A DNA stretch of 64,000 bases from an uncultured Candidatus Saccharibacteria bacterium (GCA_964525315.1 CAZGGJ010000004.1:5675-69674), one strand, 5' to 3'; positions 6,508-38,106 are shown, counted from the stretch's first letter. Numbers and translations: made by a program. Notes: generated by a model from the letters alone, not told the origin.

Positions 6508-6540
6508 TTGACAACCCCGCATGGGGGGGGGGGGTACCAT
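6508..6540 (+). promoter_or_regulatory. poly-G spacer promoter P1: TTGACA-9nt-G12-TACCAT (spacer 21)
   Basis: TTGACA is at 6508-6513, the G12 run at 6523-6534 and TACCAT at 6535-6540. The conserved leader AGAAGTAACATAACC follows. The start codon lies 38 nt downstream. Confidence 0.65.
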
Positions 6541-6578
6541 AGAAGTAACATAACCACAAGCATCTATGGAGTAGCCAC

Positions 6579-7415
6579 ATGCCACGATTACCACAACCAG
6601 GAGGAGACCAAGGTAACTGGGGCCGAATTCTCAACGACTACCTCTCCCAGGCTCACAAATCAGACGGAACCCTAAAGGACAATATTGTCTCGGCCCCTTC
6701 CATTACTAACAACACCATTACCGAAGACAAGCTTGATACGGCTGTCCGTTCCAAGCTCAATAGCGGTGGTGGTACACAAGGAGCAACTGGACCACAAGGT
6801 CCGCAGGGTGTGCAGGGGCCGGCAGGTATCGCGGGCCAAATGGGTGCGACGGGTCCGCAAGGCCCAGCTGGCGCACAAGGCCCTGCAGGCTCTGTTGGCG
6901 CAACCGGGGCGACCGGTGTTGGTACTCCTGGGGCGACGGGTGCGACAGGTCCACAGGGTAATCAAGGTTCCGCTGGGCCTCAGGGCGCCACTGGTCCTCA
7001 GGGGTCGGCAGGAGTAGTCGGTGCAACTGGGCCAACTGGGACTGCAGGTGCTTCTGGTGCAACTGGTCCTCAAGGGGCCACTGGTCCTGCTGGCGTCGAT
7101 GCCGATGCACTTATTCCTACGAATATACAAACCGGCTCATACACACTTGTTCTTGCCGATGCCGGTAAAGCGATTGACGTCAACTCGGCGTCAGCCACCA
7201 CTATGACTGTTCCGCCAAATGCCAGTGTGGCCTTCCCAGTCGGTACGGTTATAGAAGTGTGTCGTTATGGTACGGGCACTGTTGCCGTCGCCGCCGGGGC
7301 GGGTGTGACGATTCGGTCGCGTGGTTCGTTGATGTCTATCGCGGCTCAGTATAGTTCGGTATCGCTACGCAAGCGGGCGATTGATGAATGGATACTAGTC
7401 GGAGACCTTAGCTAA
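6579..7415 (+). CDS. collagen-like (Gly-X-Y) fibre protein, short form
   Basis: 278-aa ORF with RBS GGAG. N-terminus is [23 protein letters not shown]. Aa 65-172 are about 36 Gly-X-Y triplets. The globular C-terminal domain is shared with the 13722 product. Confidence 0.8.
6771..7094 (+). repeat. Gly-X-Y triplet-repeat coding region
   Basis: GGN-NNN-NNN periodicity ([16 protein letters not shown]...). It generates spurious long ORFs in the other five frames. Confidence 0.85.
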
Positions 7416-7771
7416 TGGCAGCAGTACATCATATTGCACGGCGTGGCCAGATGCAGTATCCTACCATCGCACAGGCTATGGTACAGGCTCATTACCGAGT
7501 GAATCTCGGTAATGTTGCGAGCTCACACCGCTTCCGTGCTCGCTCAACTGACCGCACTGAGCTAGTTATCGTCAACAATTCCGGTGGCGAGCTTCAGCTT
7601 GGCTCGCGTACTACCGATAACCCTGACTATAACTCGCCTTCAACATGGCCTTACACGGTACCAGATGGGAGTGAAGCCGTTATCACTGGCGATACACTGC
7701 AGTGGTACGCGCGCCGAACTGACGGCACCGGAGATATTTTTGTCGATGTGTATGTCAAGGAGATTGCGTAA
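7415..7771 (+). CDS. small conserved protein (118 aa), possible fibre accessory or chaperone
   Basis: The ATG overlaps the upstream stop (TAATG) and its own stop overlaps the next ATG (TAATG). Paralog of 14561..14917 (shared NSPSTWPY.VP.GSE.VIT.DT.QWYARR.DGT.D.FVDVYVKE.A). Confidence 0.6.
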   Translation: MAAVHHIARRGQMQYPTIAQAMVQAHYRVNLGNVASSHRFRARSTDRTELVIVNNSGGELQLGSRTTDNPDYNSPSTWPYTVPDGSEAVITGDTLQWYARRTDGTGDIFVDVYVKEIA

Positions 7772-8982
7772 TGGCCGTTACTGTTCGTTCTGCTCAGACA
7801 CGTAACCCCAGAGTATGGCTCGAAAACGTTACGACTGCAGCAAGTGATTATAAGCCGGTATATATGAGCCATGACCGCACCACCTTGTATGCGGTCAACG
7901 GTGGAGCGAATGACCGAACGCTTCACAAAAGCACCGACGACGGTGCTACCTGGACGGTTATCTTTACTGCTCCGCAGGCAAGCGAGAAGGTGACAGCATG
8001 TCTCGAGCTGTCAGATGGCAGGATGCTCGCGGCAACCTATCTTTTTGCCCAGCGACCACGACTTTATCGGTCAAGCCTTGCCGGCGGTGGCGGTACGTGG
8101 ACGCAAGTGTTTGAAAATAACGGTGTACTCAGTCAGCTCCATCCGTATTGGGGACTAACAGACCGGGGCTTCGATGGTAACGGCCACCTGTGGTTTAGCG
8201 AATATGGCGCACAGACCACTACTTCCGGTAGTCAGTCCGACAAAGCTCGGCGTATTTGGCGCAGTGTCGATGACGGCTCTTCGGCAACACCGATGTTCGA
8301 TATCATAACGTATGCTGAAACGGTGCGCGGTCTCACTGTCCCTGCTCAGACTGGCGGAGTGCATATGCACGCCGTTGCCTACGATAAGTGGGACGACCGA
8401 GTGTGGTTTACGATGGGAGATAACGTCGGTGCTGGTCCAGATATCGTTGTAGGCGGCCAGACAGGGACGAACGTTCAAATTGGTTATACTGATGATAGCT
8501 TTGCGACTGTGAACTGGTTGCCAGCTCCTACGTTCTGGGGAAATACGAAGGAGGCGCTGCAAGTGGTTGGCATCATGCCGCTTGAACATGCAGTTGTATT
8601 CAGCCCAGACGGAGTGGTGAATAGCCCGATTATTTTACCGCGCCGTGGCTACCGGACGTATGGCCCGCTCAAGGCTGGGTCGTATAACGGACTCCGTCAA
8701 GGCTATGGCTCGCTCGGCCAAGGCTTGTTCCAAGCCTGGAATCGTCCTGACCTTCCGGCATTAATGGCGATTGGCATGCCTGTGAGCAACTTCGGCCAGG
8801 CCGCAGCTGGATTATTCGCCGGCCTTGATGGCGGCTTGACGTGGGAGGAGTTGTACCGATTCACGACAGGAGCTCAAATTTCTGTTGGCGGCCTTGTCGG
8901 ACCGACAGTGAACGGCAAGGTTTTGACCAGCTTTAATGACGGTGCCGCCAAGCTGTTTATAGCAGACTTGGTTACGGCTTAG
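7771..8982 (+). CDS. BNR/Asp-box repeat beta-propeller (sialidase-like fold) protein
   Basis: 403-aa ORF. Asp-box motifs: KSTDDGATWT, RSVDDGSS, GLDGGLTWEE. Paralog of 14917..16113. The N-terminus MAVTVRSAQTR resembles a degenerate ARRL tag. Confidence 0.6.
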   Translation: MAVTVRSAQTRNPRVWLENVTTAASDYKPVYMSHDRTTLYAVNGGANDRTLHKSTDDGATWTVIFTAPQASEKVTACLELSDGRMLAATYLFAQRPRLYRSSLAGGGGTWTQVFENNGVLSQLHPYWGLTDRGFDGNGHLWFSEYGAQTTTSGSQSDKARRIWRSVDDGSSATPMFDIITYAETVRGLTVPAQTGGVHMHAVAYDKWDDRVWFTMGDNVGAGPDIVVGGQTGTNVQIGYTDDSFATVNWLPAPTFWGNTKEALQVVGIMPLEHAVVFSPDGVVNSPIILPRRGYRTYGPLKAGSYNGLRQGYGSLGQGLFQAWNRPDLPALMAIGMPVSNFGQAAAGLFAGLDGGLTWEELYRFTTGAQISVGGLVGPTVNGKVLTSFNDGAAKLFIADLVTA

Positions 8983-9001
8983 AAAACGGACAGAAGAACT
9001 A

Positions 9002-10225
9002 ATGGCAATTTCAGCACGACGATTACAGCGAGTACAGCAGAGACTGGCCTACCAAGGCACCAGTATTGGCCCCCTCGGCTATCGTATCGCCGAAATGTTC
9101 GGTGGTGACGGCAATGGTAGCTGGATTAATACGCCCATGCAGGCGAATACTGCGGTACATCCACTATCAAGTCAAGCCGTGGCTGATATTGTGCTGAATA
9201 TTCGTACACACAAGACGGGGCTACCGAGCCAGGTTGCGTGGCCAAGCTTTAGCTACAATAACTGGTCTGCCAGCCTGAACGTTGTCGACTCCGCCAGTAT
9301 GCCCCTTGTGCCAATTTTGGCGCGCGGTGGCAACGTCACGCAGTCATGGGCCTTTGCTACCCAGGCCATGATGTATGCAGGATTTCCGATACCAGATGGC
9401 CTAGAGCCGACAGATGATGGCGATGGTACTATCTACCTGTATGACCCTGACTGGAAGTGGGCCGGACGCCCAAACGACCCGCAATACCATGGAAGAATTT
9501 GGGAACTATGGGGTGCACGGTCACCAGCGCAGAATGCCGCTGATGGGTTGCCTGCGGTCTGGACGGCACTCCATGGCGGACGCATGACAGGTGTTAACAA
9601 TCGTCTTCACGCGCATATGATTCTACGGAATTCGGGGAGTGATGTGACGACACAAGCCATCCCAACTGCGTACGCACCCAAGGCACCCAACGACACCTCT
9701 AGTAATGCAGGGTACTGGGGGTACGGGCCGGATGGTGTGTACGAAAGCTCCACCTGGCTCGCGAGCGCATCACACCTTGCGATGTCTCATCACATTCTTC
9801 GTATTTCCGATATGGTCAACGGTGTTATTAAGCATCCGATGGGATTCTCGTTGTATCCTATGGTTCCTGGCTCCGAAGGTAGTAAGCCCCATGTTTGGCC
9901 AGCGACTGGTTACGACAGTGCGTCGCGCGAATGGCTTCGCCACGGCAACCGGCTGCGTCTGCCGGCTGGCTACACGGCCACCCCGCCACCGAGTATCCCA
10001 GCATCGTGGCATGCTCTATGGCATATGTTCGTAAACTGTTTCCGTGATTACGGCATCATCATGGTTGATACGACAGGCTCATCCTTTGGTATGCGTGGGG
10101 AGCCGGGGCTTGGTCCATACTTACCGTCTGGATGGGATAGTAAAATGTTTTTACAATCTCTCCCTTGGGAGGATATGCAAATGTTAGCCGTCGGTAATGA
10201 CAACGATTTTTATCCGCCTACGTAA
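9002..10225 (+). CDS. ARRL-tagged protein of unknown function, paralog of 45146..46360
   Basis: 407-aa ORF. N-terminus is MAISARRLQRVQQ. It shows long collinear similarity with the 45146 product (GPLGYRI.EMFGGDGNGSWINTPM, DGTI.LYDPDW.W.GRP.DPQY.GR..ELWGA.SP, VWPATGYD.ASR.W..HGNR.RLPA.YTAT). Confidence 0.55.
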   Translation: MAISARRLQRVQQRLAYQGTSIGPLGYRIAEMFGGDGNGSWINTPMQANTAVHPLSSQAVADIVLNIRTHKTGLPSQVAWPSFSYNNWSASLNVVDSASMPLVPILARGGNVTQSWAFATQAMMYAGFPIPDGLEPTDDGDGTIYLYDPDWKWAGRPNDPQYHGRIWELWGARSPAQNAADGLPAVWTALHGGRMTGVNNRLHAHMILRNSGSDVTTQAIPTAYAPKAPNDTSSNAGYWGYGPDGVYESSTWLASASHLAMSHHILRISDMVNGVIKHPMGFSLYPMVPGSEGSKPHVWPATGYDSASREWLRHGNRLRLPAGYTATPPPSIPASWHALWHMFVNCFRDYGIIMVDTTGSSFGMRGEPGLGPYLPSGWDSKMFLQSLPWEDMQMLAVGNDNDFYPPT

Positions 10226-10245
10226 TGAATAAGCCCCCGCCAGCG

Positions 10246-10277
10246 TTGACAAGTTCACATGGGGGGGGGGGTATCAT
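10246..10277 (+). promoter_or_regulatory. poly-G spacer promoter P2: TTGACA-9nt-G11-TATCAT (spacer 20)
   Basis: TTGACA is at 10246-10251, the G11 run at 10261-10271 and TATCAT at 10272-10277. The leader is nearly identical to that of P1 (AACATAACCACAAGCATCTATGGAGTA). Confidence 0.65.
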
Positions 10278-10320
10278 AAGGGAAACATAACCACAAGCAT
10301 CTATGGAGTAACTAACAATC

Positions 10321-12270
10321 ATGCCACGATTACCACACCCAGGCGGAGATAAAGGCAATTGGGGGACCATCCTCAACGACTATCTCTCCGTCGCTCACGA
10401 AGCTGACGGCAGCCTCAAGCCAGGTTCTGTAGCAGAATCCACGCTTGATGCTGCTGCTCGGGCAAAGCTTAATACTACGGGCGGTGCGATTGGCGCCACT
10501 GGGCCTCAAGGCTCCTCCGGTCCAGCTGGGCCCGCCGGCACTCCAGGCGTGGCAGGTCCGACGGGTCCAACTGGACCGGCAGGAGCAACGGGACTACAAG
10601 GCGCGATTGGCCCTGCCGGTACTCCGGGTACGAATGGGAGTGATGGCAATGCCGGCGCTACCGGTCCGCAGGGCACTCCAGGGACACAGGGTGCCACTGG
10701 CCCGCAAGGCTCCGTAGGCACAGCTGGGCCTCAAGGTGCTACCGGCCCCGCTGGTCAAGATGGCGCTGACGGTACGAGCGTTACCATCACTGGCAGTGTG
10801 GCTAATGCTGCCGCTCTTCCCACGGGCCTCACGCCAGGAGATGCTGGTACGGGGTATATCACTGAAGATAATGGGCATCTCCATGTCTGGAGTGGTACGG
10901 CCTGGACGGATGCCGGAGAGATACGAGGCCCTGCCGGTGCCACCGGCCCGCAAGGTGCACCGGGTGCTCCCGGAACGGCTGGTTCTGATGGCAACCAAGG
11001 AGCTACTGGGCCTCAGGGACCCACTGGACCAGCGGGTACGAGCGGCACCACTGGTGCGACTGGCCCCGCTGGGTCGCCGGGTGTGACAGGGGCAACAGGG
11101 CCAAGCGGTTCGGCAGGACTTGCTGGTGCAACAGGCCCGATAGGCCCGCAAGGTGCGACTGGCCCAACTACCGATGCCACGACTTCCTCAAAAGGAGTTG
11201 TTCGGCTTGCCGGCGACCTGGCTGGCACGGCAGACACGCCGACAGTGCCTGGCCTTGCCGCCAAGGCGAATGCCGTGGATACGATTCACAACCAGTCGGC
11301 CACTGCTCAAGCCGCCAATTACTGGGTGCAGAGTGCCGACCCGGCGAATGTCTCGGCGGTAGTGCAGGCTGCAACGAGCCAATCGGCCAATATATTTGAA
11401 GTTCGCGATGCTGGCGGCCAAGTGCCGTTTGCCGTACTGAATAACGGCGACGTCACCATCTCGCGCCGTACGCTCACCCTCGGTACGACCACGACGAATG
11501 CCTCGCGTTTCGTGCTCCAAGGTAATACGCAGACCAACGCTACCAACCAGTATGGGTTTCGCAGCGAGCCGATATTTCTGCCGACGGGTGCGGTGAGTAA
11601 TGTTTATAGCTTGGTGAACCGCGCAGCGCTTGCTAGTAGCTCCCAAAATGTGGGTCAGCTGTGGGGTGCTGTCGTTGGTGTGCAGACACTGCCTAGCTAC
11701 ACAGGCACGCTGGCAAATGCCACCGTACTGGGTGTTTCAGCGCCCGATATGCAGGGCAGCAAGGCTAGTGTGGTATACGGCATATCTATCAGCGGCATAG
11801 CCGCAAATGGTGGCAACACTTCAGGCGAGATTAGCAATACCCAGCTGTATATTGATTCGAGTACGGCTGTCGCAGGCGCTGGCGGCACTGTACGTAATAT
11901 CGGAATTCTTGCTATCATGCCAAGCGGAACTGGCGGTGGTACTACGGTTAATAACGGAGTTATCATCTCCGATACGGCCAATACGCCCAACGGCTCATGG
12001 TCGTTCTATAATAGCAGTGTTGCCAATAGCCACATCAGTGCCAATCTGCTGGTGGGAACCACCTCTAACCCTGCCGGACACAAAGTAAATGTCAACGGTA
12101 GCGTCAATGCCACCAATGTCCTCGCCGGCGGTGTCGACCTCGGCTGGGTATCACCGCCAGCCTCAGCTACTGCTGCTGGTACTGCCGGGCAGAAGGCGTA
12201 TGACGCCAACTATCTATACGTCTGTACGGCCACTAATACATGGCGTCGTGTAGCGCTGGCGGCATGGTGA
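10321..12270 (+). CDS. collagen-like fibre protein, long form with large C-terminal head region
   Basis: 649-aa ORF with the conserved [16 protein letters not shown]-terminus. Two Gly-X-Y blocks are split by the insert GTSVTITGSVANAAALPTGLTPGDAG.GYITEDNGHLHVWSG. The C-terminal motif GTAGQKAYDANYLYVCTATNTWRRVALAAW is of a kind I associate with phage fibre-like proteins. Confidence 0.8.
   Translation: MPRLPHPGGDKGNWGTILNDYLSVAHEADGSLKPGSVAESTLDAAARAKLNTTGGAIGATGPQGSSGPAGPAGTPGVAGPTGPTGPAGATGLQGAIGPAGTPGTNGSDGNAGATGPQGTPGTQGATGPQGSVGTAGPQGATGPAGQDGADGTSVTITGSVANAAALPTGLTPGDAGTGYITEDNGHLHVWSGTAWTDAGEIRGPAGATGPQGAPGAPGTAGSDGNQGATGPQGPTGPAGTSGTTGATGPAGSPGVTGATGPSGSAGLAGATGPIGPQGATGPTTDATTSSKGVVRLAGDLAGTADTPTVPGLAAKANAVDTIHNQSATAQAANYWVQSADPANVSAVVQAATSQSANIFEVRDAGGQVPFAVLNNGDVTISRRTLTLGTTTTNASRFVLQGNTQTNATNQYGFRSEPIFLPTGAVSNVYSLVNRAALASSSQNVGQLWGAVVGVQTLPSYTGTLANATVLGVSAPDMQGSKASVVYGISISGIAANGGNTSGEISNTQLYIDSSTAVAGAGGTVRNIGILAIMPSGTGGGTTVNNGVIISDTANTPNGSWSFYNSSVANSHISANLLVGTTSNPAGHKVNVNGSVNATNVLAGGVDLGWVSPPASATAAGTAGQKAYDANYLYVCTATNTWRRVALAAW
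10483..11166 (+). repeat. Gly-X-Y triplet-repeat coding region (two blocks, about 10483-10773 and 10927-11166)
   Basis: Triplet periodicity is visible in the translated sequence. Antisense and out-of-frame ORFs in this span are artefacts. Confidence 0.85.
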
Positions 12271-12317
12271 TTTAATATAATGAGAAAAAGCATGAGAGCT
12301 AAAGGAGGAAATCTAGT

Positions 12318-13568
12318 ATGGGTAGTCCAGGAGTAGGCGGGTCACTTAGCGCAGCCAGCGACGTCGCGTTTAGCAACCCTGCGACCGGGCAGGTGATTCA
12401 GCGCAGCGGTGCGTATTGGGTAAATGCAGCCCCGGCCGGGGAAGGTACTAATCCATCGAGTTGGATATACCTTGACCAGATGACCGGTGCGAATGATGAT
12501 GCCAAGCTAACGGCTGCGATAGATTTGCAGAAAAACACTGCCGGCATGCCACCAATTGTTCTCGGCGCGCGCAATCATTCGTTCAACCAAACACGTCAAC
12601 TCTATTCCGGCCTCAAGCTTATCGGTCAGTCGACTGGGCCAAAGAACCTCGAGCAAAGCCCCAATTTTGTGACGTCGCGTATTACCCTGGGGAGCAGCGT
12701 ATCGTCGGGCGCGTCCAGCTGGTGGGTGACACCGGGCGGCAACCTGTTTGACATCTATATGGGTGATTTTGCTGTGCAAGGCAATGCTGGGTCGAGTGTG
12801 CACCAGTTTATCGATGTGACGAGCGGCTCGCTCTACGCTTGTCAATTTCATAGTCTGGCCTTCAACTTCATGCGTAGTGTGTTTGGCCGCAAAGACCGCA
12901 AGTGCCTCATGACGCAAGTAGTATTTTCGGGACATTGGACGGCAAATAATCTGTGGGATACCCAGTTTTTCCTTGGCGGTGCAGATTGTCAACTGTGGGT
13001 AGGCGGCTACATCAATATCGGGCCATCATCCTCATCATTACAGACGGGTACGTATGCTGACAACGATTATCAGATAGTCTTCGATAATCTTACCAAGACA
13101 GATATTGGCTATATCTTCACTTCTTCGTTAAATGGATGGAGGGGTCTCAAAGTGACGGGAAACAGCGGGCATGGACTGCGATTTTTCGGTGGGACGTATG
13201 AGGGCTACAAATCTTCGAATGACAACTTAGCTGCCCCAGGGACAGTTATCCGTCTCGAGGGCGGCTCAGGGGCATTCTTCGGCCCAAGCGTGGGGCAAGC
13301 GATGCAGAGTCCTGACGGGGCCGAAGGTGGGCCAATACACATGACCGGTGGTGAATGGTCGTTTTATTCACCGAATTTTTATCGTTCTCCGATGGCAGAT
13401 AGTCAGCCGTGTATTTACCATACGGGCGGTAGGCTCCTCGTGATGGGCGCGACACGGCACGAGGGTGAAGCATGGACGACACGACCGCGCTACCAGACTA
13501 CTCGGAGTGGCCCGAACTCATCAGAAGACTCGTTTTATTGTCCTGATATGTCGATGGTGAGTGTATAA
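12318..13568 (+). CDS. MGSPGVGGSLSAASDVAFS-family protein, paralog of 1836..3050
   Basis: 416-aa ORF with RBS AAGGAGG at 12302-12308. The first about 60 nt are nearly identical at DNA level to the start of 1836. Confidence 0.6.
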   Translation: MGSPGVGGSLSAASDVAFSNPATGQVIQRSGAYWVNAAPAGEGTNPSSWIYLDQMTGANDDAKLTAAIDLQKNTAGMPPIVLGARNHSFNQTRQLYSGLKLIGQSTGPKNLEQSPNFVTSRITLGSSVSSGASSWWVTPGGNLFDIYMGDFAVQGNAGSSVHQFIDVTSGSLYACQFHSLAFNFMRSVFGRKDRKCLMTQVVFSGHWTANNLWDTQFFLGGADCQLWVGGYINIGPSSSSLQTGTYADNDYQIVFDNLTKTDIGYIFTSSLNGWRGLKVTGNSGHGLRFFGGTYEGYKSSNDNLAAPGTVIRLEGGSGAFFGPSVGQAMQSPDGAEGGPIHMTGGEWSFYSPNFYRSPMADSQPCIYHTGGRLLVMGATRHEGEAWTTRPRYQTTRSGPNSSEDSFYCPDMSMVSV

Positions 13569-13629: not shown

Positions 13630-13659
13630 TTGACCTTTCCGCTGGGGGGGGGGTATCAT
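13630..13659 (+). promoter_or_regulatory. poly-G spacer promoter P3: TTGACC-8nt-G10-TATCAT (spacer 18)
   Basis: TTGACC is at 13630-13635, the G10 run at 13644-13653 and TATCAT at 13654-13659. The leader AAAAGTAACCATTAGC resembles that of P6. Confidence 0.65.
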
Positions 13660-13721: not shown

Positions 13722-14561
13722 ATGCCGCGCCTACCCCACCCAGGAGGAGACAAAGGTAACTGGGGAGATATCCTCAACGACTACCTCTCCCAAGCTCATA
13801 ACCCAGACGGTACTCTCAAAGATAACGCCGTTTCTACGCCTGCCATTACCAACAACAGTATTAGTGAAGGCAAGCTCGATGCGGCCGTCCGTTCTAAGCT
13901 CAACTCTGGCGGTGGTGTCCAAGGTGCAACTGGCCCGCAGGGTCCTCAAGGGCCACAAGGTCAACAAGGCGCTGCTGGCACGCCTGGGCAAGCTGGTGCC
14001 ACAGGCCCACAAGGACCCTCCGGAGCACCTGGTAGTCAAGGACTTGCTGGTGCAACTGGTGCGCAAGGAGCTACCGGTCCCACAGGTAGTCAGGGTAATC
14101 CGGGTACAGCCGGTCCTACCGGGGCTACCGGCCCTCAGGGTACTGCTGGTCCCGCCGGTGCGACTGGCCCCAAGGGCGACCAAGGTGACGCGGGTGCTAC
14201 CGGGCCTGCCGGAGCAGCTGGCGCCACTGGGCCAGCCGGCACTGACGCCGAGCCGCTGATTCCTACCAACTTGCAGTCCGGCTCATATACCCTTGTGCTT
14301 GCCGACGCAGGCAAAGCTATCGATGTTGACTCGGCATCAGCCACCACAGTAACTGTCCCGCCAAACGCAAGCGTGGCCTTCCCAGTCGGTACGGTCATAG
14401 AGGTATGCCGCTACGGTACTGGTACGGTTGCTATTGCAGCCGGTGCAGGTGTGACGCTCCGCTCGCGCGATTCGCTTACTTCTATCGCTGTGCAGTACAG
14501 CTCCGTCTCTTTACGCAAGCGAGCAACTGATGAGTGGATAGTAGTCGGAGACCTGAGCTAA
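13722..14561 (+). CDS. collagen-like fibre protein, short form (paralog of 6579..7415)
   Basis: 279-aa ORF with RBS AAGGAG. Same N- and C-terminal domains as the 6579 product, with Gly-X-Y triplets at aa 65-173. Confidence 0.8.
13914..14240 (+). repeat. Gly-X-Y triplet-repeat coding region
   Basis: [22 protein letters not shown]... periodicity. Confidence 0.85.
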
Positions 14562-14917
14562 TGGCAGTACTGCATAGTATGCGGCGAGGCACTATGCAAT
14601 ACCCTGCCGCCACTCCGCAGCTTATGATGACGGCGCACTACAGGGTAAACCTTGGGTATGCAAATAACACGAATCGTGTACGTACACGTTCGGCCGACCG
14701 GCGCGAACTAATTATCGTTAATACGTCGGGTGGCGATATCGAACTGGGAACCCGTACGCAAGATAATCCAGATTTTAATTCGCCCTCTACCTGGCCTTAC
14801 CAGGTGCCAGCGGGTAGCGAAGTAGTAATTACAAGCGATACCACTCAGTGGTATGCCCGCCGCATTGATGGTACGACAGATGTTTTTGTTGATGTCTATG
14901 TCAAGGAGGTGGCGTAA
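14561..14917 (+). CDS. small conserved protein, paralog of 7415..7771
   Basis: The ATG at 14561 overlaps the collagen gene stop (TAATG), exactly as in the first module. The track ORF start at 14534 lies inside the upstream gene and is unlikely. Confidence 0.6.
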   Translation: MAVLHSMRRGTMQYPAATPQLMMTAHYRVNLGYANNTNRVRTRSADRRELIIVNTSGGDIELGTRTQDNPDFNSPSTWPYQVPAGSEVVITSDTTQWYARRIDGTTDVFVDVYVKEVA

Positions 14918-16113
14918 TGGCGCTTTCTGTCCGTGCAGCCCAGGTGCGTGCTCCGCGTGTACGACTAGACAATGTGAACATTGCCGCGAGCCCCTATAGG
15001 CCAATATATATGAGTCGCGACCGTACGACCGTGTATGCCGCTAACGATAAAATACTTGCCAAAAGCACTGATGACGGCGCCACATGGACAGATATCTTCA
15101 CGACGCCGCTGAGTAACGAACCCATCACGGCGTGTCTAGAGTTGCCCGACGGCCGACTGCTGGCGGCTGCTTGGCGGTTTAACCAAGCCCCCAGAATATA
15201 CCGCTCAAGCCTACCAGGCGGTGCTGGCACTTGGACCAATATATTTCAAAATACTGGTGTGCTTAGTCAATTTCAGCCATTTTGGAGCCTTACCGACTCA
15301 TGTTTTGACGGCAATGGCCATCTGTGGCTGAGTGAGTATGGCGCGCAGACGACTACTTCCGGCGACCAGAGTGACAAAGGAAGGCGCATCTGGCGTGGCA
15401 ACGACGATGGTTCGTCGTTTACACCAATGTTTGACTTACTCACTTATGCCGAAACAGTACAGGGCCTGACTGTTCCAACCCAGACTGCCGGTCTTCATAT
15501 GCACGCAGCTGCCTACGATAAATGGGATGACCGCGTGTGGTTTACGATGGGCGATGATGTTGGTGCAGGGCCGGACGTAGTAACGGGTGGTTCGAGCGGT
15601 TATAACGCTGAAATTGGCTATACCGATGATAATTTTGCGACGGTCAATTGGCTGCCACTGCCTGCATTCTGGGGAAATACTAGAGAGGCAGTGCAAGTCG
15701 TCAGTATTTTACCCCTAGAGAACGCCGTCATATTTGCTGCGGACGGTAAGCCAAATGGCATACTGGTCTTGCCGCGACGGGGCTATCGCACGTATGGGTC
15801 ACTGAAGGTGGGGCCGCATAATTCAGTCCGTCATCTGTATGCCTCATTAGGTCAAGGCTTGACGCGCGCCTGGAACCGGCCTGACTTGCCAGCACTTGCG
15901 GCAATTAGTTTGCCTGCTACAAGCAGCCAAGGCGCTGCCGCATTGTTCGCCGGTCTTGATGGTGGGTTAGCGTGGGAAGAGCTCTATCGCTTTCAAACTG
16001 GAGTCATCACTACCCTCGGCGGCTTTGTCGGGCCGACAGTAAACGGCAAAGTAGTGGCATCGGTCAACGACGGCGCGGCCAAAGTGTTGACGGCTGATTT
16101 GGTGATAGTTTAG
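14917..16113 (+). CDS. BNR/Asp-box beta-propeller protein, paralog of 7771..8982
   Basis: 398-aa ORF with a TAATG overlap to the upstream gene. Motifs: KSTDDGATWT, GNDDGSS, GLDGGLAWEE. Confidence 0.6.
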   Translation: MALSVRAAQVRAPRVRLDNVNIAASPYRPIYMSRDRTTVYAANDKILAKSTDDGATWTDIFTTPLSNEPITACLELPDGRLLAAAWRFNQAPRIYRSSLPGGAGTWTNIFQNTGVLSQFQPFWSLTDSCFDGNGHLWLSEYGAQTTTSGDQSDKGRRIWRGNDDGSSFTPMFDLLTYAETVQGLTVPTQTAGLHMHAAAYDKWDDRVWFTMGDDVGAGPDVVTGGSSGYNAEIGYTDDNFATVNWLPLPAFWGNTREAVQVVSILPLENAVIFAADGKPNGILVLPRRGYRTYGSLKVGPHNSVRHLYASLGQGLTRAWNRPDLPALAAISLPATSSQGAAALFAGLDGGLAWEELYRFQTGVITTLGGFVGPTVNGKVVASVNDGAAKVLTADLVIV

Positions 16114-16144
16114 GTATACTAGGGAGAGAGAAAGGAGGGATAGC

Positions 16145-17377
16145 ATGGCTATTTCAGCGCGGCGGCTGCAGCGTGCACAGCAAAATAGTCCAGACAGCGT
16201 GCCATTTGCGTGGCTTACTGGCTCTCCGGTGCCGCCAACTTCTATTCCTGCCATGACCACTGGCTACCGCGTATCTGGTACGCAGATTCTCGGACCAAAT
16301 GGGCAGCCGTTTGTAGCCCGCGGCGTAAATGTTGGGTCGGTCAAGGCCAATGGCGGCGGGTACCCCGACTTCTCAAAAAATCCGCAATATGCAGCCGATT
16401 TCATTGCGCGCGGCGGCAACACCGTTCGCCTCCCGCACTATGCATCGTCCCGCTACTCATGGTCGGCACACAATACTGGCTACAACGGCTACACCGGAGC
16501 TGATGCGACATTCCAGTATGCCAAGGATTTGATTGACTTCTGGCGCGGGCAAGGAGTTGTTGTGATTATCAATACGCACGACTTTATCGCAGAAGGCTGG
16601 ACCCAGGAGCATCTGCTGCAATGCGAGACCTTCTGGTCGCGAATTGCCAATCAGTACAAGACCGACATCGGCGTATGGTTCAACCTGTATAACGAGATAT
16701 CCGTCTATCTTCACAACGAAGACGGGGCATTCAGTGATGGAAATAGAGACAAGGTTCGTGAGCGCTGGACACTCGTGCACGCCAGGGCCTGCAAGATTAT
16801 CCGCGATGCGGGTGCGCCAAACATTATCATTACTGACGGTATGACGATGGCGCAGGATGCCGCAAATCACTGGGATGGCAAGCCTGCTCCCAAGAGCTAC
16901 GATGCAGATGCAGGGCCGCTGCTATCATCACTCTACAAGGGTATTGTCATTGGGTGGCACAACTACGGTGCCCTCGGTAATACTGCTACCAAAATTACGA
17001 ACTATATCAACACCGTGCATGGCGTCGGCCTACCCGTGATTATTGGCGAGTTTGGCTATCCTATCAAGCGCGGGTGGGATGAGATTAGCTATGAGTGGTG
17101 GCCTAATCTGCGCGACGCGTTCGATTACACGATGGCAACCGTGCCGTCTATGGGCGTGGGTATGATGTACTGGTCGAGCACGTTCAAGGATTCATTTAGT
17201 CTGTATAAGCCGTTCTGGAATTGGACGCCCAACGCGACGCTTATCAACGAGTTTGCCCAAACCCTACCGGAGGGCCGTTCGCTTTCTGGTCAGGGTGAGA
17301 AATTCTTTGCCTTTCTGGCAAACGGCCAGGCAGTACCGTACTCTCAGTCACACTCTGGCGGCACTGCCGAAGAGTAG
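16145..17377 (+). CDS. glycoside hydrolase family 5-like (cellulase/mannanase fold) with ARRL tag
   Basis: 410-aa ORF with a strong RBS (AAAGGAGGG). N-terminus is MAISARRLQRAQQ. GH5-like landmarks: GVNVG, NTVRLP, FNLYNEIS (NE acid/base), WHNYG, IIGEFGY (nucleophile Glu). Confidence 0.65.
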   Translation: MAISARRLQRAQQNSPDSVPFAWLTGSPVPPTSIPAMTTGYRVSGTQILGPNGQPFVARGVNVGSVKANGGGYPDFSKNPQYAADFIARGGNTVRLPHYASSRYSWSAHNTGYNGYTGADATFQYAKDLIDFWRGQGVVVIINTHDFIAEGWTQEHLLQCETFWSRIANQYKTDIGVWFNLYNEISVYLHNEDGAFSDGNRDKVRERWTLVHARACKIIRDAGAPNIIITDGMTMAQDAANHWDGKPAPKSYDADAGPLLSSLYKGIVIGWHNYGALGNTATKITNYINTVHGVGLPVIIGEFGYPIKRGWDEISYEWWPNLRDAFDYTMATVPSMGVGMMYWSSTFKDSFSLYKPFWNWTPNATLINEFAQTLPEGRSLSGQGEKFFAFLANGQAVPYSQSHSGGTAEE

Positions 17378-17384: not shown

Positions 17385-17420
17385 TTGACAATGCTCGTGC
17401 TTGTGACTACACTTTATAAT
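17385..17420 (+). promoter_or_regulatory. sigma70-type promoter without poly-G (TTGACA-17-TACACT; alternative TATAAT at 17415-17420)
   Basis: TTGACA is at 17385-17390 and TACACT at 17408-17413. A 6-bp inverted repeat (GCATTG/CAATGC, 17378-17394) overlaps the -35. Confidence 0.5.
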
Positions 17421-17484
17421 AAGCACAGCTGTATATAGCAACATAAATAAATAAACCAAACCAGTAGAGGAGCAAGGAATCGCG

Positions 17485-21154: not shown

Positions 21155-21185
21155 TTGACGATTCCTCTGGGGGGGGGGGTATCAT
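21155..21185 (+). promoter_or_regulatory. poly-G spacer promoter P4: TTGACG-8nt-G11-TATCAT (spacer 19)
   Basis: TTGACG is at 21155-21160, the G11 run at 21169-21179 and TATCAT at 21180-21185. The leader AGAAGTAACATAACC is identical to that of P1. Confidence 0.65.
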
Positions 21186-21238
21186 AGAAGTAACATAACC
21201 GCTATAGCAGAGACGATGGAGGGAGCGAGAACAACCGC

Positions 21239-30697: not shown

Positions 30698-31846
30698 ATG
30701 GCAGAATACGAACGAACTATTGAAAAACGCATAAACAATACCTTGTTTGATAAAGGTATGATTACCGTGCTATACGGTGCGCGCCAGGTAGGCAAAACGA
30801 CTTTGGCTAAAAAGCTATTGCGTCGACACCATTCAATTGAGGGCTATTACAACTGCGAGCTGCAGGCGGTAGCAGATGTATTTGCGACACGCAACCCCGA
30901 GGCAATGCACGATGAGTTTGGTGGGCGTAAGCTGGTCGTATTTGACGAGGCACAGACCATACCGGATATCGGGCGCAAGCTAAAGCTACTCATCGATGCC
31001 TACCCTGATATGGCGATTATTGCGACTGGTTCGAGCTCGTTTGAGCTAGCCAATCATGTGAATGAGCCGTTGACCGGGCGGCATTACGAATACTTCCTGT
31101 CGCCGCTTGCTACTGAAGAAATGCTGGCACTGGGCACCAAGACCGACATCAAAAACGACCTGCCCACCCGCCTGATATATGGCAACTACCCGGCAATCTA
31201 TGCGGCCAAGAATAATGACGAGGCTCGCCAAAAACTGGAGCTGCTGGCGACGAGCTACTTGTACCGCGATGTTTTGCGGTTTGGGGCAGTGCTGAACTCT
31301 GAAGTGTTAATGAATGTACTGAAGGCGCTGGCGCACCAGGTGGGCGGCGAGGTGTCGTATAACGAAATCGCTAGCTTGGTGGGGATTGACCGCAAGACAG
31401 TCATGAGCTACGTAGGGCTTTTGGAGCAGGCGTTTATTATCTTCCGTTTAACGCCGTACACCACCCGCGCTCGTGATGAAATTAAGAAGCTACGCAAAGT
31501 ATATTTTTATGACAACGGCATATTGAACGCTCTGACAGGTAACTTTACCGGTGTGGAATCTGGCAGGGATATGGGCGGACTGTGGGAAAACTATATGGTG
31601 AGCGAGCGGGTGAAGTACCAGCGGAACCACTTGCTGTACCGCAAAAATTATTACTGGCGCAAGCGCTCTGGTGCCGAGGTAGACCTGGTAGAGGAATACG
31701 ATGGTAAACTGGTGCCATATGAGTTTAAATTTGCTAAAAGCGAGGCAAGCAGAGGGGCGTTTAGCTTTGTAGAGCAGTATGAACCCAAAGGCGGACAGGC
31801 GGTACAGGTGATAAATAAGGACAATTTTATACAGTTTTTGGCATGA
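30698..31846 (+). CDS. AAA-type ATPase of the DUF4143-containing family
   Basis: 382-aa ORF. Walker A is GARQVGKTTL and Walker B is LVVFDEAQ. The overall layout is typical of the ATP-binding protein plus DUF4143 family. Visibly lower GC than its neighbours. Confidence 0.7.
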   Translation: MAEYERTIEKRINNTLFDKGMITVLYGARQVGKTTLAKKLLRRHHSIEGYYNCELQAVADVFATRNPEAMHDEFGGRKLVVFDEAQTIPDIGRKLKLLIDAYPDMAIIATGSSSFELANHVNEPLTGRHYEYFLSPLATEEMLALGTKTDIKNDLPTRLIYGNYPAIYAAKNNDEARQKLELLATSYLYRDVLRFGAVLNSEVLMNVLKALAHQVGGEVSYNEIASLVGIDRKTVMSYVGLLEQAFIIFRLTPYTTRARDEIKKLRKVYFYDNGILNALTGNFTGVESGRDMGGLWENYMVSERVKYQRNHLLYRKNYYWRKRSGAEVDLVEEYDGKLVPYEFKFAKSEASRGAFSFVEQYEPKGGQAVQVINKDNFIQFLA

Positions 31847-31914
31847 TAATTTGGGATTTGAATCCTGAATTATCAGTCTACTGAATGTGCAGCCATGGAA
31901 GAATCTAGCCAGCC

Positions 31915-32772
31915 TTACAGCGCCGAAAGCGGCTTATACCATATCCAATCGACTGACATTTGCGCCGGGAAGTCGCTGGCTTGTGGAGCCGGTAGCCAGC
32001 TAGGTGCAACAGCAAAATTGGTAATGTAGTACATCGGCTGCTGGAAGTGCTGGTTCCAGATACCTGGCGCCATATCCGAGGGACCCCAGTCGCCAATCTG
32101 AATCTGGTCGACACCGACCCGGATACGGTCGGGCTCCCATAGCAACCAGTAGGTGCGATAACCCAGGTTTGAGTCGGTACTATTCACATCGTTATCGAGG
32201 TCGTTGCCATTATTGTTAGTGTACATATGGCTCGCGTAGTTCGACGAGTTGCCGAATTGCTCTATAATGTCGAACTCGGCGTAGTAGTCGCTAGTATTGT
32301 AGCCAACAAGCAGCATCCAAAACGCCGGAAACCAAGCACGGCCGACGCTGCCCTGCGACCGCGGCATCTTGATGCGTGCCGCACACCAGCCGTACTGCAT
32401 GGCAAAGCGCTGGCGCGAAGTGAAGCGGCCTGAGTAGATAGTGCTGCCGGGCCGCGTGGCCTCCATGACTGCATGACCGCTGCCGTCGAGATACATATTG
32501 GCGTCCTGATACACCTGCGTGCCGCCTTGGTTGATGGTATCGCGCTGCCACAAGCGGTTGTCGAGAGTGGTACCGTCGAAGTGGTCCCATACTTCGTTGG
32601 TTGCAAGGCGCGTATAGTCAAATTGACCGGAAGTGCCGACCATCGGGCCGTCAGGGGCAGGGGACGTGCCGGTGGGTGGGCTGGCCAGCATCAGCGCCGG
32701 GAGCGGGTCGCCGGAAGAACCGCCATTTGGCGGCCGCGAACCTTGCTGAAGCCGTCTCGCAAACCTGCTCAT
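31915..32772 (-). CDS. glycoside hydrolase family 16-like (beta-glucanase fold) with ARRL tag
   Basis: 285-aa ORF and the only island gene on the minus strand. N-terminus is MSRFARRLQQG. The GH16 catalytic motif E-x-D-x-x-E is present as AEFDIIEQ, and a WPAFWML block is also present. Confidence 0.65.
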   Translation of the reverse strand: MSRFARRLQQGSRPPNGGSSGDPLPALMLASPPTGTSPAPDGPMVGTSGQFDYTRLATNEVWDHFDGTTLDNRLWQRDTINQGGTQVYQDANMYLDGSGHAVMEATRPGSTIYSGRFTSRQRFAMQYGWCAARIKMPRSQGSVGRAWFPAFWMLLVGYNTSDYYAEFDIIEQFGNSSNYASHMYTNNNGNDLDNDVNSTDSNLGYRTYWLLWEPDRIRVGVDQIQIGDWGPSDMAPGIWNQHFQQPMYYITNFAVAPSWLPAPQASDFPAQMSVDWIWYKPLSAL

Positions 32773-32940: not shown

Positions 32941-32971
32941 TTGACAACCCCGCTAGGGGGGGGGGTACCAT
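32941..32971 (+). promoter_or_regulatory. poly-G spacer promoter P5: TTGACA-9nt-G10-TACCAT (spacer 19)
   Basis: TTGACA is at 32941-32946, the G10 run at 32956-32965 and TACCAT at 32966-32971. The spacer prefix ACCCCGC is the same as in P1. Confidence 0.65.
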
Positions 32972-34031: not shown

Positions 34032-34051
34032 GACAGGAAGGAACGTATTTC

Positions 34052-34495
34052 ATGAGTCAATTTGCCCGCCGCGCCCAGCGCGCTTCACCGCCACAAGGCG
34101 CACGCCTCTATATCACTCCGGCATCCGGGTCGTATAGCAATGGCAGTACTGTCACTGTCACAATCATGGAAAACAGCTACGCGGATGCAGTCAACGCCGT
34201 CCAAGCAAACTTGACCTACCCAACCAACCGCTTGACCTTCCAGTCGATTAGCACCACGAATAGTAATTTCACAACCACTATCCAAAGCGAAGGTGGCAGC
34301 GGTACGGTGCAGGTCGGCGTCGGCTTGCTTGGCAATACGCTTACTGGAGCGCAAGAAGTTGCTCGTGTTACCTTCACGGCAAACGGCACTGGCTCGGCAG
34401 CCATCAGTTTCGCGGCGGGTTCCGGTATTGCGCGCGCGAGCGACTCGACTGATATCTGCCAGCAACAAAGCGGAGCTACCTATACCATTACGTAG
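34052..34495 (+). CDS. single cohesin-like domain protein with ARRL-type tag
   Basis: 147-aa ORF. N-terminus is MSQFARRAQRA. The pattern LYITPASGSYSNGSTVTVTI....VNAVQANLTYPTNRLTFQSI....GTVQVGVG.....EVARVTFTANGTGSAAISF fits a cohesin-type beta-sandwich. Confidence 0.45.
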   Translation: MSQFARRAQRASPPQGARLYITPASGSYSNGSTVTVTIMENSYADAVNAVQANLTYPTNRLTFQSISTTNSNFTTTIQSEGGSGTVQVGVGLLGNTLTGAQEVARVTFTANGTGSAAISFAAGSGIARASDSTDICQQQSGATYTIT

Positions 34496-34518
34496 GTCGC
34501 TTCAGACTGATATTCATT

Positions 34519-35962: not shown

Positions 35963-35985
35963 CGCTATTTATTCAGTGCTACAGA

Positions 35986-36014: not shown

Positions 36015-36052
36015 CTATGTTGATACGAGAGTGATTACGAGCATCGGCGGCC

Positions 36053-36084
36053 TTGACAACTCCCCTTGGGGGGGGGGGTACCAT
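36053..36084 (+). promoter_or_regulatory. poly-G spacer promoter P6: TTGACA-9nt-G11-TACCAT (spacer 20)
   Basis: TTGACA is at 36053-36058, the G11 run at 36068-36078 and TACCAT at 36079-36084. The leader is AGGGAGTAACCATTAGC. Confidence 0.65.
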
Positions 36085-36108
36085 AGGGAGTAACCATTAG
36101 CAAGTAAA

Positions 36109-36858
36109 GTGACGTCTATCATCCCTATGCCTATCCGTTTATTCCAAACCCCCATCGCCAATCTCTACTTGGGCACTACTCCAGTAGACAAAGTATATAT
36201 GGGTGGCACGCAGGTATGGCCGGAGATGACAGGGTTGTGGCATAGCCGCAGCGTACTTGCCGGCAGCTCGGTTGATGCTAACGGCACTGCCAGCCATACC
36301 TGCACGTTTGCGCCGGCCACGAGCGGACACAGGCTTGTCGCGATTGTGGCCGGAGCAGTGGCGTCATCGACGCCAGCTGGCTGGAGCTTGGTAGTGTCGG
36401 CAGTGCAGTTGACCGGCCTGTATGTATTTACCAAAATAGCAACTGGGGGCGAGAGTTCGTTCACGACGACACATAATAGTGCGAATTACGCTATACGCGG
36501 GGTAGTCTACGAGCTGCCGGCGAGCGCAACGGTACTAGGAAGCAACTCTCAACTCCTCGCTGGTGGCGGAGCTGTTTCTGGCCCTGCCATGACCGGCCTC
36601 ACGGGCACCTATGCGGTGTTTGCGGCGCGCAGTCATGGCCTGACACTGCCTAGCGGCTCTATCGAGGCCAGTTGGACGGCTCCGACCATCGAAGATTACG
36701 AAGAGTTTGTGGGGAGCAACGGCAACGATGGTATTGGGCTATCTGTGGCCGTCCAGAGCGGTGTGAGTGGCGACTCGTTCTCCTGTGTTTACAACATGAT
36801 GTGGGACAATACAGCCATTGATGTCGGTGAAAGCGCCGTGGTGGCAATAAGCGTATAA
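36109..36858 (+). CDS. hypothetical protein (249 aa), start uncertain
   Basis: ORF from GTG 36109, with an alternative ATG at 36127. It is the first gene after P6. No tag, signal peptide or recognisable motif. Confidence 0.45.
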   Translation: MTSIIPMPIRLFQTPIANLYLGTTPVDKVYMGGTQVWPEMTGLWHSRSVLAGSSVDANGTASHTCTFAPATSGHRLVAIVAGAVASSTPAGWSLVVSAVQLTGLYVFTKIATGGESSFTTTHNSANYAIRGVVYELPASATVLGSNSQLLAGGGAVSGPAMTGLTGTYAVFAARSHGLTLPSGSIEASWTAPTIEDYEEFVGSNGNDGIGLSVAVQSGVSGDSFSCVYNMMWDNTAIDVGESAVVAISV

Positions 36859-36871
36859 TGAAAGGTGAAGC

Positions 36872-38059
36872 ATGCATAAGCGTATTGGCAAGTATCTATC
36901 AAACTGGCGGACAGTAGCGCTCGCGGCTACGAGCCTTGTGGCCTGCATCGCTATCGCGACCGTGGTGTATGCTGCCGCGAATACGTACAATTCCCAAGAA
37001 GCCGAAGCTGGCACGCGCGCTGGCAATGTCGCACTCGTGTCCGACTCGTCCGCCTCTAGCTCCAGTGCCGTGAAGTTTGGCACGAGCACTACGGGCGGCT
37101 GTGTCGGCGCAACTAACGAGCCGGGCGGCCCTGACCCATGGGGCGGCTGCTGGCCTGGTCCGCAGAACACTGGGTACCCGCAGGGCCTCCCAGGTGATAC
37201 CCGCACACCAGTGACGTTGACGAACTACACGGGTCCAGCGGAAATCAATTCGTGCGGCACAGTCATTGAAAACAAGCTTGTCAATACCTGGCTCCTGCTG
37301 AAGGTCGGCAACGGCACTCATAGCAAAGACACGCCGTGTCTGACCATCCGCAACAGCAAGATAATTGGTACGATTAACACTATGGATGCGGTCAAAGGCC
37401 CAATCCTAATAGAGGATTCCGAGATTACGACTGTCGATGAGGCTATATCGTATGGCATTCCGTTTGTTGAGAACCTGGGCCGTTACAATATTTTTGCTTA
37501 CCGTGTGAAGAGTCTTGGCGGCGACCCGACCATCAAATGCGCTGCCTATTGCGAGACCAAGGATTCGATGGTGTACGCGCCGACGCTCGGCGGCAACGAC
37601 CGGCACTATAATGCCATCGGCGGCAACGGCATGGAGGCTGGGTCATGGAATATCGAGCACAACTATGCCTCTTGCGGAGACTGGTCGGGAACTTCGACCG
37701 GGTCGCCTCCGACGGGCGATACGGGCTGCTCGGCCGCTATCGGGTTTTACGGCGACTTTTCTCCGGTACGCAATATCACGATTCATCGTAACCTCATCAG
37801 GTCGTCGTATGTCGTCAGCGGCGGGCAAGAATTCCGTCAGGCCGCCTATTGCCTGAACCCTGGCTACTATGTCGGCAAACCATATCCGAATCCAACAAAT
37901 ATGACTATTACGGATAATATTTTCCATCGTAGTCTGTCTGGGAAATGCGGTATCTTCGGCCCGACCAACAGCCTGAATAAGGTCGGCCAAGGCAGCACAA
38001 ATGTCTGGAGCGGCAACCGCTACACTGATGGTACAGCGATTAACCGCGTCGAAGAATAG
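36872..38059 (+). CDS. signal-anchored beta-helix-like protein
   Basis: 395-aa ORF. The N-terminal hydrophobic segment is WRTVALAATSLVACIAIATVVYAAA. Beta-helix-like repeats include TIRNSKIIGTIN and ILIEDSEITT. The similar NITIHRNLIRS block recalls 719 and 5672. Confidence 0.5.
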   Translation: MHKRIGKYLSNWRTVALAATSLVACIAIATVVYAAANTYNSQEAEAGTRAGNVALVSDSSASSSSAVKFGTSTTGGCVGATNEPGGPDPWGGCWPGPQNTGYPQGLPGDTRTPVTLTNYTGPAEINSCGTVIENKLVNTWLLLKVGNGTHSKDTPCLTIRNSKIIGTINTMDAVKGPILIEDSEITTVDEAISYGIPFVENLGRYNIFAYRVKSLGGDPTIKCAAYCETKDSMVYAPTLGGNDRHYNAIGGNGMEAGSWNIEHNYASCGDWSGTSTGSPPTGDTGCSAAIGFYGDFSPVRNITIHRNLIRSSYVVSGGQEFRQAAYCLNPGYYVGKPYPNPTNMTITDNIFHRSLSGKCGIFGPTNSLNKVGQGSTNVWSGNRYTDGTAINRVEE

Positions 38060-38075
38060 TCTTGACGCTCTTCGC

Positions 38076-38106
38076 TTGACAATCCCGCACGGGGGGGGGG
38101 TACCAT
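38076..38106 (+). promoter_or_regulatory. poly-G spacer promoter P7: TTGACA-9nt-G10-TACCAT (spacer 19)
   Basis: TTGACA is at 38076-38081, the G10 run at 38091-38100 and TACCAT at 38101-38106. A second TTGACG lies 15 nt upstream (38062-38067). Confidence 0.65.

Follow-up and report, generated by a model that had tools for sequence, protein, structure and literature searches.

Seven predicted promoters in a 64,000-nt stretch of an uncultured, wastewater-type Candidatus Saccharibacteria bacterium (GCA_964525315.1 CAZGGJ010000004.1:5675-69674; 54.7% G+C), hereafter the window, carry a run of 10 to 12 G residues in the spacer between their -35 and -10 hexamers. These sites, designated P1 to P7 and located within 32 kb, are probably slipped-strand poly-G promoter-spacer switches of host-contact operons, comparable to those of porA, tp0126 and vlp in other bacteria. 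The window contains seven G runs of 7 nt or more, all on the + strand and all intergenic (G12, G11, G10, G11, G10, G11 and G10 from P1 to P7), and no C run of 7 nt or more. The distribution of G-run lengths was bimodal, with 16 runs of G5, none of G6 to G9 and seven of G10 to G12, and the string GGGGGGGG occurred 26 times in the window versus 2.1 expected from dinucleotide-preserving shuffles, a count that was reached in none of 100 shuffles. Non-coding DNA represents 8% of the window and holds all seven long runs. Their presence at these sites is not due to chance.

Alignment of the sites revealed a common layout, (C/G)TTGAC(A/C/G), 8 or 9 nt, Gn, TA(T/C)CAT and A(G/A), in which TTGAC was invariant, the G run always abutted the second hexamer, and the 8-9 non-G bases of the spacer were pyrimidine-rich. 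All seven are on the + strand. P1 (6508..6540) is composed of TTGACA, ACCCCGCAT, G12 (6523-6534) and TACCAT, with a spacer of 21 nt, and P2 (10246..10277) of TTGACA, AGTTCACAT, G11 (10261-10271) and TATCAT, with a spacer of 20 nt. The shortest spacer, 18 nt, was found at P3 (13630..13659; TTGACC, TTTCCGCT, G10 at 13644-13653, TATCAT). Spacers of 19 nt are present at P4 (21155..21185; TTGACG, ATTCCTCT, G11 at 21169-21179, TATCAT), P5 (32941..32971; TTGACA, ACCCCGCTA, G10 at 32956-32965, TACCAT) and P7 (38076..38106; TTGACA, ATCCCGCAC, G10 at 38091-38100, TACCAT), and P6 (36053..36084; TTGACA, ACTCCCCTT, G11 at 36068-36078, TACCAT) has 20 nt, so that the range is 18-21 nt and the median 19 nt. 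In all seven cases a homopolymer of at least about 8 nt thus lies between predicted sigma-70-type -35 and -10 hexamers. Each site precedes the first gene of a tightly packed same-strand string, at 38, 43, 62, 53, 49, 24 and 70 nt (P1 to P7) from the end of the second hexamer to the first start codon.

The coordinates, run lengths and spacer lengths of the seven sites coincided exactly with those of an initial annotation made from the sequence, and its further descriptions also held: the shared layout was recovered by alignment, the distance to the first gene of each same-strand string measured 24-70 nt, and no additional G or C run of 8 nt or more (or even of 7 nt) exists in the window. The two ordinary promoters that it had named as comparators are likewise present. 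One, the tract-free TTGACA-17-TACACT (17385..17413, + strand), precedes a fifth collagen-fibre paralogue, and the other, TTGACG-18-TATAAT, is found at 46381. Its reading of the sites as promoters fits the sigma-70-like hexamers, their location before the first gene of an operon and the occurrence of the same layout in more than 100 strong consensus promoters elsewhere. A promoter scan, which accepts spacers of 16-18 nt only, listed just P3 and the tract-free promoter at 17385 among these sites.

The sequence shared by the seven sites extends from about -40 to about +20 and, immediately behind the second hexamer, has the motif A(G/A)AAGTAAC. Chance-level matches aside, the window contains this motif at poly-G promoters only, and it is common to poly-G promoters of several Saccharibacteria species; tract-free copies of the whole promoter module were not detected in the window above chance-level matches. 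The motif lies at 6541-6549 and 21186-21194, and at equivalent positions of the other five sites, and is a candidate start-site region or factor site.

Tract length could be compared between assemblies at P1, P3 and P4. For P3, the comparison set comprised nine other assemblies encoding a residue-identical P3 fibre (eight Logan assemblies of SRA runs and one NCBI assembly), whose contigs shared 97.6-99.9% identity with the window and 99.6-100% among themselves. The P3 tract was G10 in the window and in seven other assemblies, G11 in contig L145 and G12 in contig L148, within flanks (32 nt before and 40 nt after the tract) that were identical in all compared assemblies. At P4 the window and L146 shared G11, compared with G12 in L145, a strain in which P3 and P4 are both one G longer. 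At P1 the window has G12 and an independent assembly (L161) has G11, the sole difference between them over 970 bp (0 mismatches). Likewise, L148 differed from L145, L146 and L147 only in the G run, with 0 mismatches over 4,030 bp in each case. L145 and L146 differed by 15 substitutions and two gaps over 8,697 bp, and both gaps were attributed to the P3 and P4 G runs, whose lengths differ between the two. L148 (G12) and L149 (G10), which derive from runs with neighbouring accession numbers, showed one substitution in 4 kb.

Tract length was therefore polymorphic at all three comparable sites, for some pairs in DNA with 0 substitutions over 1-4 kb. The compared 12 kb contained 18 control homopolymers of 5-6 nt, none of which showed an indel, so that variation at P1, P3 and P4 among near-identical genomes exceeds the background. 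The G tract changes faster than 4 kb of flanking DNA gains one substitution. Whether tracts stay fixed across strains was a check proposed in the initial annotation, and at these three sites they did not. Exact-protein look-ups found no gene on record for the window open reading frames (ORFs) at 5672-6454, 7415-7771, 36109-36858 and 38177-39595, and a single contig, ending short of P5, for 34052-34495. The only other genuine indel in the compared DNA was in a tetranucleotide repeat (ATAA/ACAA) at 17443-17458, which is situated behind the tract-free promoter, as part of the 5' leader sequence of fibre gene 17485-18471 (the fifth), and differs by 8 nt between strains.

Sequencing or assembly artefacts could produce such differences if each tract were in fact of one fixed length, given that long G runs are error-prone on Illumina instruments, that assemblers break there and that the comparison contigs were for the most part generated automatically by Logan, run by run. 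This explanation is very improbable. The differences occur in consensus contigs, amount to up to 2 nt (G10 vs. G12) and are the sole differences over 4 kb; the other homopolymers in 9-12 kb were free of indels; two samples yielded the same L145 contig, with its G11/G12 state; and G10 at P3 was reproduced in seven independent assemblies in addition to the window.

We infer that the hexamers form active promoters, that slippage is the mutational process, that tract length affects transcription and that switching is reversible and independent at each site. Each site would consist of a sigma-70-type promoter with a hypermutable poly-G tract in the -35/-10 spacer, abutting the -10 hexamer. Slipped-strand mispairing during replication would add or remove single G residues, and these slips would be left uncorrected because MutS and MutL have not been found in Saccharibacteria (PMC8406219), a lack that would also make runs of G10 to G12 very unstable. 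Each slip would alter both the distance and the rotational phasing of the hexamers, and thereby the frequency at which RNA polymerase initiates at that promoter. With one operon behind each site, a slip would switch that operon or tune its level; the operon products are predicted to be collagen-like phage-type fibres, tandem-lectin proteins, or beta-helix and GH5 glycan-active enzymes, and a population would hold cells with differing combinations of fibres and enzymes. The up to 128 ON/OFF states put forward in the initial annotation would require all seven sites to be independent, and in the strain of L145 both P3 and P4 are longer by one G.

Close and distant relatives are Candidatus Saccharibacteria assembled from metagenomes of sewage, activated sludge and laboratory reactors, and related species carry tracts before the same gene families. 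In a lineage with about 71% protein identity (L001), the orthologous fibre operon lies behind TTGACA, 8 nt, G12 and TACAAT, and five of six distinct contigs of this lineage from other samples begin inside the G12 tract or just past it. In lineage L139, the orthologous fibre operon is preceded by G9 and the lectin operon by C7G10, and in a second sample of that lineage (L140) the contig end falls inside the lectin-operon tract. Such repeated contig breaks are a further sign that the tracts are hypermutable. A run of G10 precedes the lectin operon in L108, and in more distant Saccharibacteria G10 precedes a fibre gene (L074) and G16 a lectin-like gene (L023). Conservation thus concerns the kind of tract and not its length, the run ranging from G9 to G16 before the same gene families across species. 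The P4 orthologues of three lineages (the window, L139 and L108) have spacers of 8+11, 9+10 and 9+10 nt, with a total of 19 nt throughout, and this constant total with a changing split suggests that spacer length, and not the number of G residues, is under selection. It is also the one indirect hint that tract length influences transcription. At the P4 orthologue of L139 (15131-15147), C7 is directly followed by G10, forming a C/G-tract palindrome inside the spacer. A pair of contigs with G12 and G13 and identical flanks (L032 and L107) was considered as a case of within-sample heterogeneity and discarded, as their upstream DNA differs and identifies them as paralogous copies of the promoter.

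The main rival explanation is neutral drift of a static G-rich spacer. The tract would then be hypermutable and have no regulatory effect, being either a static promoter feature (for example, a G-rich spacer or a partial extended -10) or what remains of a duplicated promoter module; without mismatch repair its length would drift, and spacers of 18-21 nt would be transcribed equally well. Such drift is compatible with the narrow range of the spacers, with the dominance of G10 at P3 and with the existence of one related lineage that does without the tract, and the sharing of the whole module from -35 to +20, including A(G/A)AAGTAAC, by the seven sites is consistent with duplication. We nevertheless regard neutrality as unlikely. 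Without MutS and MutL, useless long homopolymers should be purged, yet the window has seven runs of G10 to G12 at one promoter position and none of G6 to G9, a survival that is hard to explain without selection. Moreover, tracts persist across species while their lengths and the adjoining spacer bases change, and the 19-nt total kept at the P4 orthologues despite differing G numbers would be unexpected if length were neutral. A 1-bp change of the spacer is known to alter output in porA and tp0126 (PMC7864442).

The same promoter layout was found well beyond Saccharibacteria. A scan of GTDB with one genome per species and the pattern TTGAC-N9-15-G9-TAYMATAR, which is blind to spacers shorter than 17 nt, returned at least 117 loci (L020-L136). 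Among these listed matches, a full TTGACA was present in 81% and TATAAT in 71%, versus 25% each by chance, and on these frequencies the layout is taken to mark real promoters. The listed matches belonged mostly to uncultured Firmicutes, and also to Treponema, Fusobacterium, Streptococcus suis, other phyla of the Candidate Phyla Radiation (CPR) and several Saccharibacteria. Their G runs, from G9 to G23, abutted the -10 hexamer, some genomes carried several copies (e.g., at least six loci in the Oscillospiraceae metagenome-assembled genome CAZSIF01), and the first downstream gene often had a signal-peptide-like or pilin-like N-terminus. A scan of Joint Genome Institute metagenome contigs with a Saccharibacteria-style pattern gave four matches, none of them similar to the Saccharibacteria loci, and a scan of viral contigs gave three unrelated matches.

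Spacers among the listed GTDB matches were of 17 nt (11 loci), 18 nt (34), 19 nt (50) and 20 nt (13), with a peak at 19 nt, which means either that most of these promoters were caught OFF or that G-rich spacers have a longer optimum. The spacers of the window (18-21 nt, median 19 nt) look like this general distribution of poly-G promoters. The initial annotation had ranked the sites against an optimum of 17-18 nt, with P3 as near-optimal and the others as one, two or three nucleotides too long. Given the 19-nt peak of the reference poly-G promoters, that ranking is unsafe, and it is also at odds with the P4 orthologues of three lineages, all at 19 nt.

This peak also hints that tract geometry matters, which would suit a tract that acts not by hexamer spacing but by way of a bound factor or a DNA structure, such as a regulator of G/C tracts or A-form or G-quadruplex-like DNA beside the -10 hexamer, with tract length tuning that interaction. 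For the poly-C tract of opc, a regulator that recognizes it has been proposed. The tract always abuts the -10 hexamer and is preceded by a C-rich stretch, and the motif after the -10 hexamer, confined to poly-G promoters, might be the site of a factor. We consider this reading rather improbable, as Pfam searches yielded no candidate regulator in the window and single-strand folding of the seven sites was no better than that of shuffled sequences (z-scores from -0.55 to +1.3). A run of G10 to G12 is also too short for a canonical three-tetrad quadruplex, and the finding of the same layout in unrelated phyla with perfect TTGACA and TATAAT hexamers favours a generic effect of polymerase spacing. 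A hairpin between the C-rich part of the spacer and the G run was rejected on the same folding results.

Switching by DNA inversion or recombination (an inverton or shufflon), with poly-G being incidental, would suit a region rich in paralogous cassettes, where strains differ in the genes that lie upstream of the ORF 12318-13568 orthologue. Such switches were rejected as scarcely credible. Of the two hallmarks of an inverton, flanking inverted repeats and a nearby recombinase, the first bracket none of the seven promoters, and Pfam recovered recombinase or regulator domains in none of the window proteins scanned; all seven promoters, moreover, face their operons.

Several observations weigh against phase-variable switching by the tracts. 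The transcription start sites, and the hexamers as an active promoter, are predictions. At 18-21 nt, all seven spacers are above the textbook value of 17 nt, which leaves three readings: most sites may be OFF, the optimum may be another one for G-rich spacers, or spacing may be less critical than assumed. In addition, the run places a G at -14, which could make the promoter partly similar to an extended -10 promoter and less dependent on spacing. In a lineage represented by L007-L016, the orthologous fibre operon is driven by an ordinary promoter with no tract, and the tract is therefore dispensable, an add-on and not a requirement. Regarding tract variation, the polymorphism was observed between consensus assemblies of different samples rather than within one clonal population, there is a small chance of short-read homopolymer errors behind the consensus lengths, and the comparison rests on three of the seven sites, with no second assembly for P2, P5, P6 and P7.

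Control of transcription by poly-G between the -35 and -10 hexamers is established for porA and tp0126 (PMC7864442). As in porA of Neisseria meningitidis, a G homopolymer (about 9-11 nt in porA) is located in a sigma-70 spacer before genes for surface proteins; in porA its length sets the spacing of the hexamers and thereby the volume of transcription (PMC7864442), an effect that we infer for the window. Differences are that porA is one gene, and here seven promoters in 32 kb each head a multi-gene operon; that the porA optimum is a 17-nt spacer, compared with 18-21 nt here; and that the organism, unlike the porA host, is a CPR episymbiont from a group reported to lack MutS and MutL. The similarity to Treponema pallidum lies in the presence of several paralogous surface-protein genes with promoter poly-G tracts (tp0126; tprE, G, J, L) in a host-dependent, hard-to-culture bacterium, where tract lengths vary within and between isolates and the tp0126 tract lies between -35 and -10 (PMC7864442). 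Unlike the sites described here, the tpr tracts of T. pallidum are just upstream of the start site with no clear spacer position, and T. pallidum tracts are mostly of 7-11 G, compared with G10 to G12. Variation and reporter effects have been measured in that species, and the present case is built on sequence comparison.

The vlp genes of Mycoplasma hyorhinis, paralogous surface genes each with a homopolymer between -35 and -10 that gives combinatorial ON/OFF repertoires, are the closest analogue of many independent switches in one locus. Their tracts are poly-A and not poly-G, they control single lipoprotein genes instead of operons for fibres and enzymes, and their role is immune evasion in an animal host, compared with presumed attachment to a bacterial host here. 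The diversification of phage tail fibres by diversity-generating retroelements and shufflons may have a similar goal, that is, to vary receptor-binding fibres, and one fibre type of the window has a tip domain shared with Gordonia phages. In contrast to those systems, a promoter repeat would choose the expressed gene with no rewriting or inversion of sequence, and neither a reverse transcriptase nor a recombinase was found in the window.

The genes behind the promoters, all on the + strand, encode proteins of surface or host-interaction type according to their domains and folds (collagen-like phage-type fibres, a tandem lectin fold, beta-helix enzymes, GH5 and dockerin proteins), in line with their description as surface-type genes in the initial annotation. 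The P1 operon (6579..10225) encodes a 278-aa collagen-like fibre and proteins of 118, 403 and 407 aa, with matches to the Pfam Collagen family and to PHROG tail fibre and minor tail families. The P2 operon (10321..13568) encodes a collagen-like fibre of 649 aa that contains DUF5907, together with a pectate-lyase-like protein of 416 aa, and the P3 operon (13722..17377) a 279-aa collagen-like fibre, proteins of about 118 and 398 aa and a GH5 cellulase-family protein. Behind P4 (21239..30538) are a 474-aa tandem lectin-like protein and three large beta-helix/PKD proteins, assigned by Pfam and a structure model, and behind P5 (33021..35962) a collagen-like fibre bearing a phage tail tip domain, along with a protein of 147 aa, a membrane protein and a dockerin protein. 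The P6 operon (36109..38059) encodes proteins of 249 and 395 aa of unknown family, with no match in Pfam or PHROG. In the P7 operon (38177..46360), the gene for a tandem lectin-like paralogue of 472 aa comes first, and five genes for beta-helix or unknown proteins come next.

The N-terminus MPRLPxPGGDxGNWG is common to the collagen-repeat fibres, which have matches among phage tail-fibre and minor-tail families. The last ~100 aa of the P1 fibre (window 7098-7412) were 57-61% identical to the C-terminal ends of "minor tail protein" genes in 223 Gordonia phages (E values down to 6e-23), for instance gene 38 of phage Fitzgerald, which directly precedes lysin A. The P3 fibre (13722-14561) is a 77%-identical paralogue of the P1 fibre, and for the remaining fibres (ORFs at 10321, 33021 and 17485) tblastn searches of phages with the tip sequences gave no match. 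The lectin-like proteins of P4 and P7 (~470 aa) were found to be paralogues by alignment. The model of the P4 protein (predicted local distance difference test score, pLDDT, 88) consists of tandem lectin/CBM-type beta-sandwiches, with best Foldseek matches to tandem CBM22, galectin-8, sialidase lectin domains and the receptor-binding domain of botulinum toxin; the likeness came from this fold search, and no significant match to PDB sequences was obtained with a profile of the lectin-like family. Candidatus Mycosynbacter amalyticus, a cultured relative, is a parasite of Gordonia. The fibre, lectin and enzyme content, the tip match with Gordonia phages and this parasitic relative make a role of the products of these operons in host contact plausible, and the shared tip suggests that the saccharibacterium and Gordonia phages may bind the same receptor on a Gordonia-like host. 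It is thus a concrete lead to both host and receptor.

The mechanism is long known, and its probable occurrence in CPR bacteria is new. Among published full texts, no paper was found that links Saccharibacteria or CPR bacteria with repeat-mediated phase variation, and the papers on Candidatus Mycosynbacter mention neither collagen-like fibres nor homopolymers nor phase variation. What stands out is the number of candidate switches, seven in 32 kb, in an episymbiotic CPR bacterium and with phage-like host-contact proteins under their control. How ultrasmall CPR episymbionts choose and keep their bacterial hosts is a general question in a group whose gene regulation is barely known. More tentatively, and as a possibility that we rate below even chance, the sites may form a stochastic host-range switchboard, in which each switch would turn on its own set of phage-like receptor-binding fibres, lectins and enzymes that degrade cell-wall glycans, resulting in clonal bet-hedging across host strains or surface states, likely of a Gordonia-like host of the Mycobacteriales. 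It would be a counterpart of phage fibre diversification achieved through the lineage-wide loss of mismatch repair, and the design might be widespread and largely unrecognized in uncultured Firmicutes, spirochaetes and other CPR bacteria.

If the sites do switch, attachment fibres and wall-degrading enzymes of Saccharibacteria would be expressed stochastically and in combinations, which would explain variable host range and the dynamics of host resistance in co-cultures, and one consensus genome would hide functionally different subpopulations. For metagenomics, poly-G tracts are recurrent contig breakpoints, and their assembled lengths are not to be taken at face value. Switching is directly testable from existing reads and in the few Saccharibacteria that are cultivable or genetically tractable.

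Additional features were observed in the window. Rfam and tRNA scans of the window found nothing. The array of + strand genes is interrupted between the P4 operon and P5 by an AAA ATPase gene (AAA_14 and DUF4143) and a convergent GH16 gene, on the minus strand (30698-32772). When the strain of L145 (1-6008), 97.6% identical over the part in common, was compared with the window (6500-12300), different genes were present upstream of the orthologue of ORF 12318-13568. In that segment, similarity is limited to one stretch that is 74% identical to window 679-1960 and to a short piece of a fibre gene; the island is therefore rearranged between strains.

At least 14 otherwise different proteins (beta-helix, GH5 or unknown) begin with an N-terminal motif close to M-S-I-A-A-R-R-L-Q-R-A, with ORF starts at 719, 3051, 5672, 9002, 16145, 22686, 24646, 27584, 34052, 39520, 41315, 42638, 43830 and 45146. 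Five fibres have the longer N-terminal motif MPRLPxPGGDxGNWGxILN(D/E)YL in common, and MGSPGVGGSLSAASDVAFS is common to the N-termini of two window proteins. Such shared N-terminal motifs could be export or docking tags of an unknown system. Finally, a run of genes for secreted proteins with shared C-terminal endings (e.g., ...IPTY, ...IAAPQY, ...IASGRF and ...IATGTF) extends from 49529 to 58035. Two of these proteins are WxL-interacting-like and have a membrane anchor at the C-terminus, and after the run comes a type IV pilin-like gene (57903-58841). The run at 49529-58035 may be a pilus or fibre assembly operon; Pam pili specific to CPR bacteria, with a tail-fibre-like gene in the vicinity, have been described in a recent preprint.

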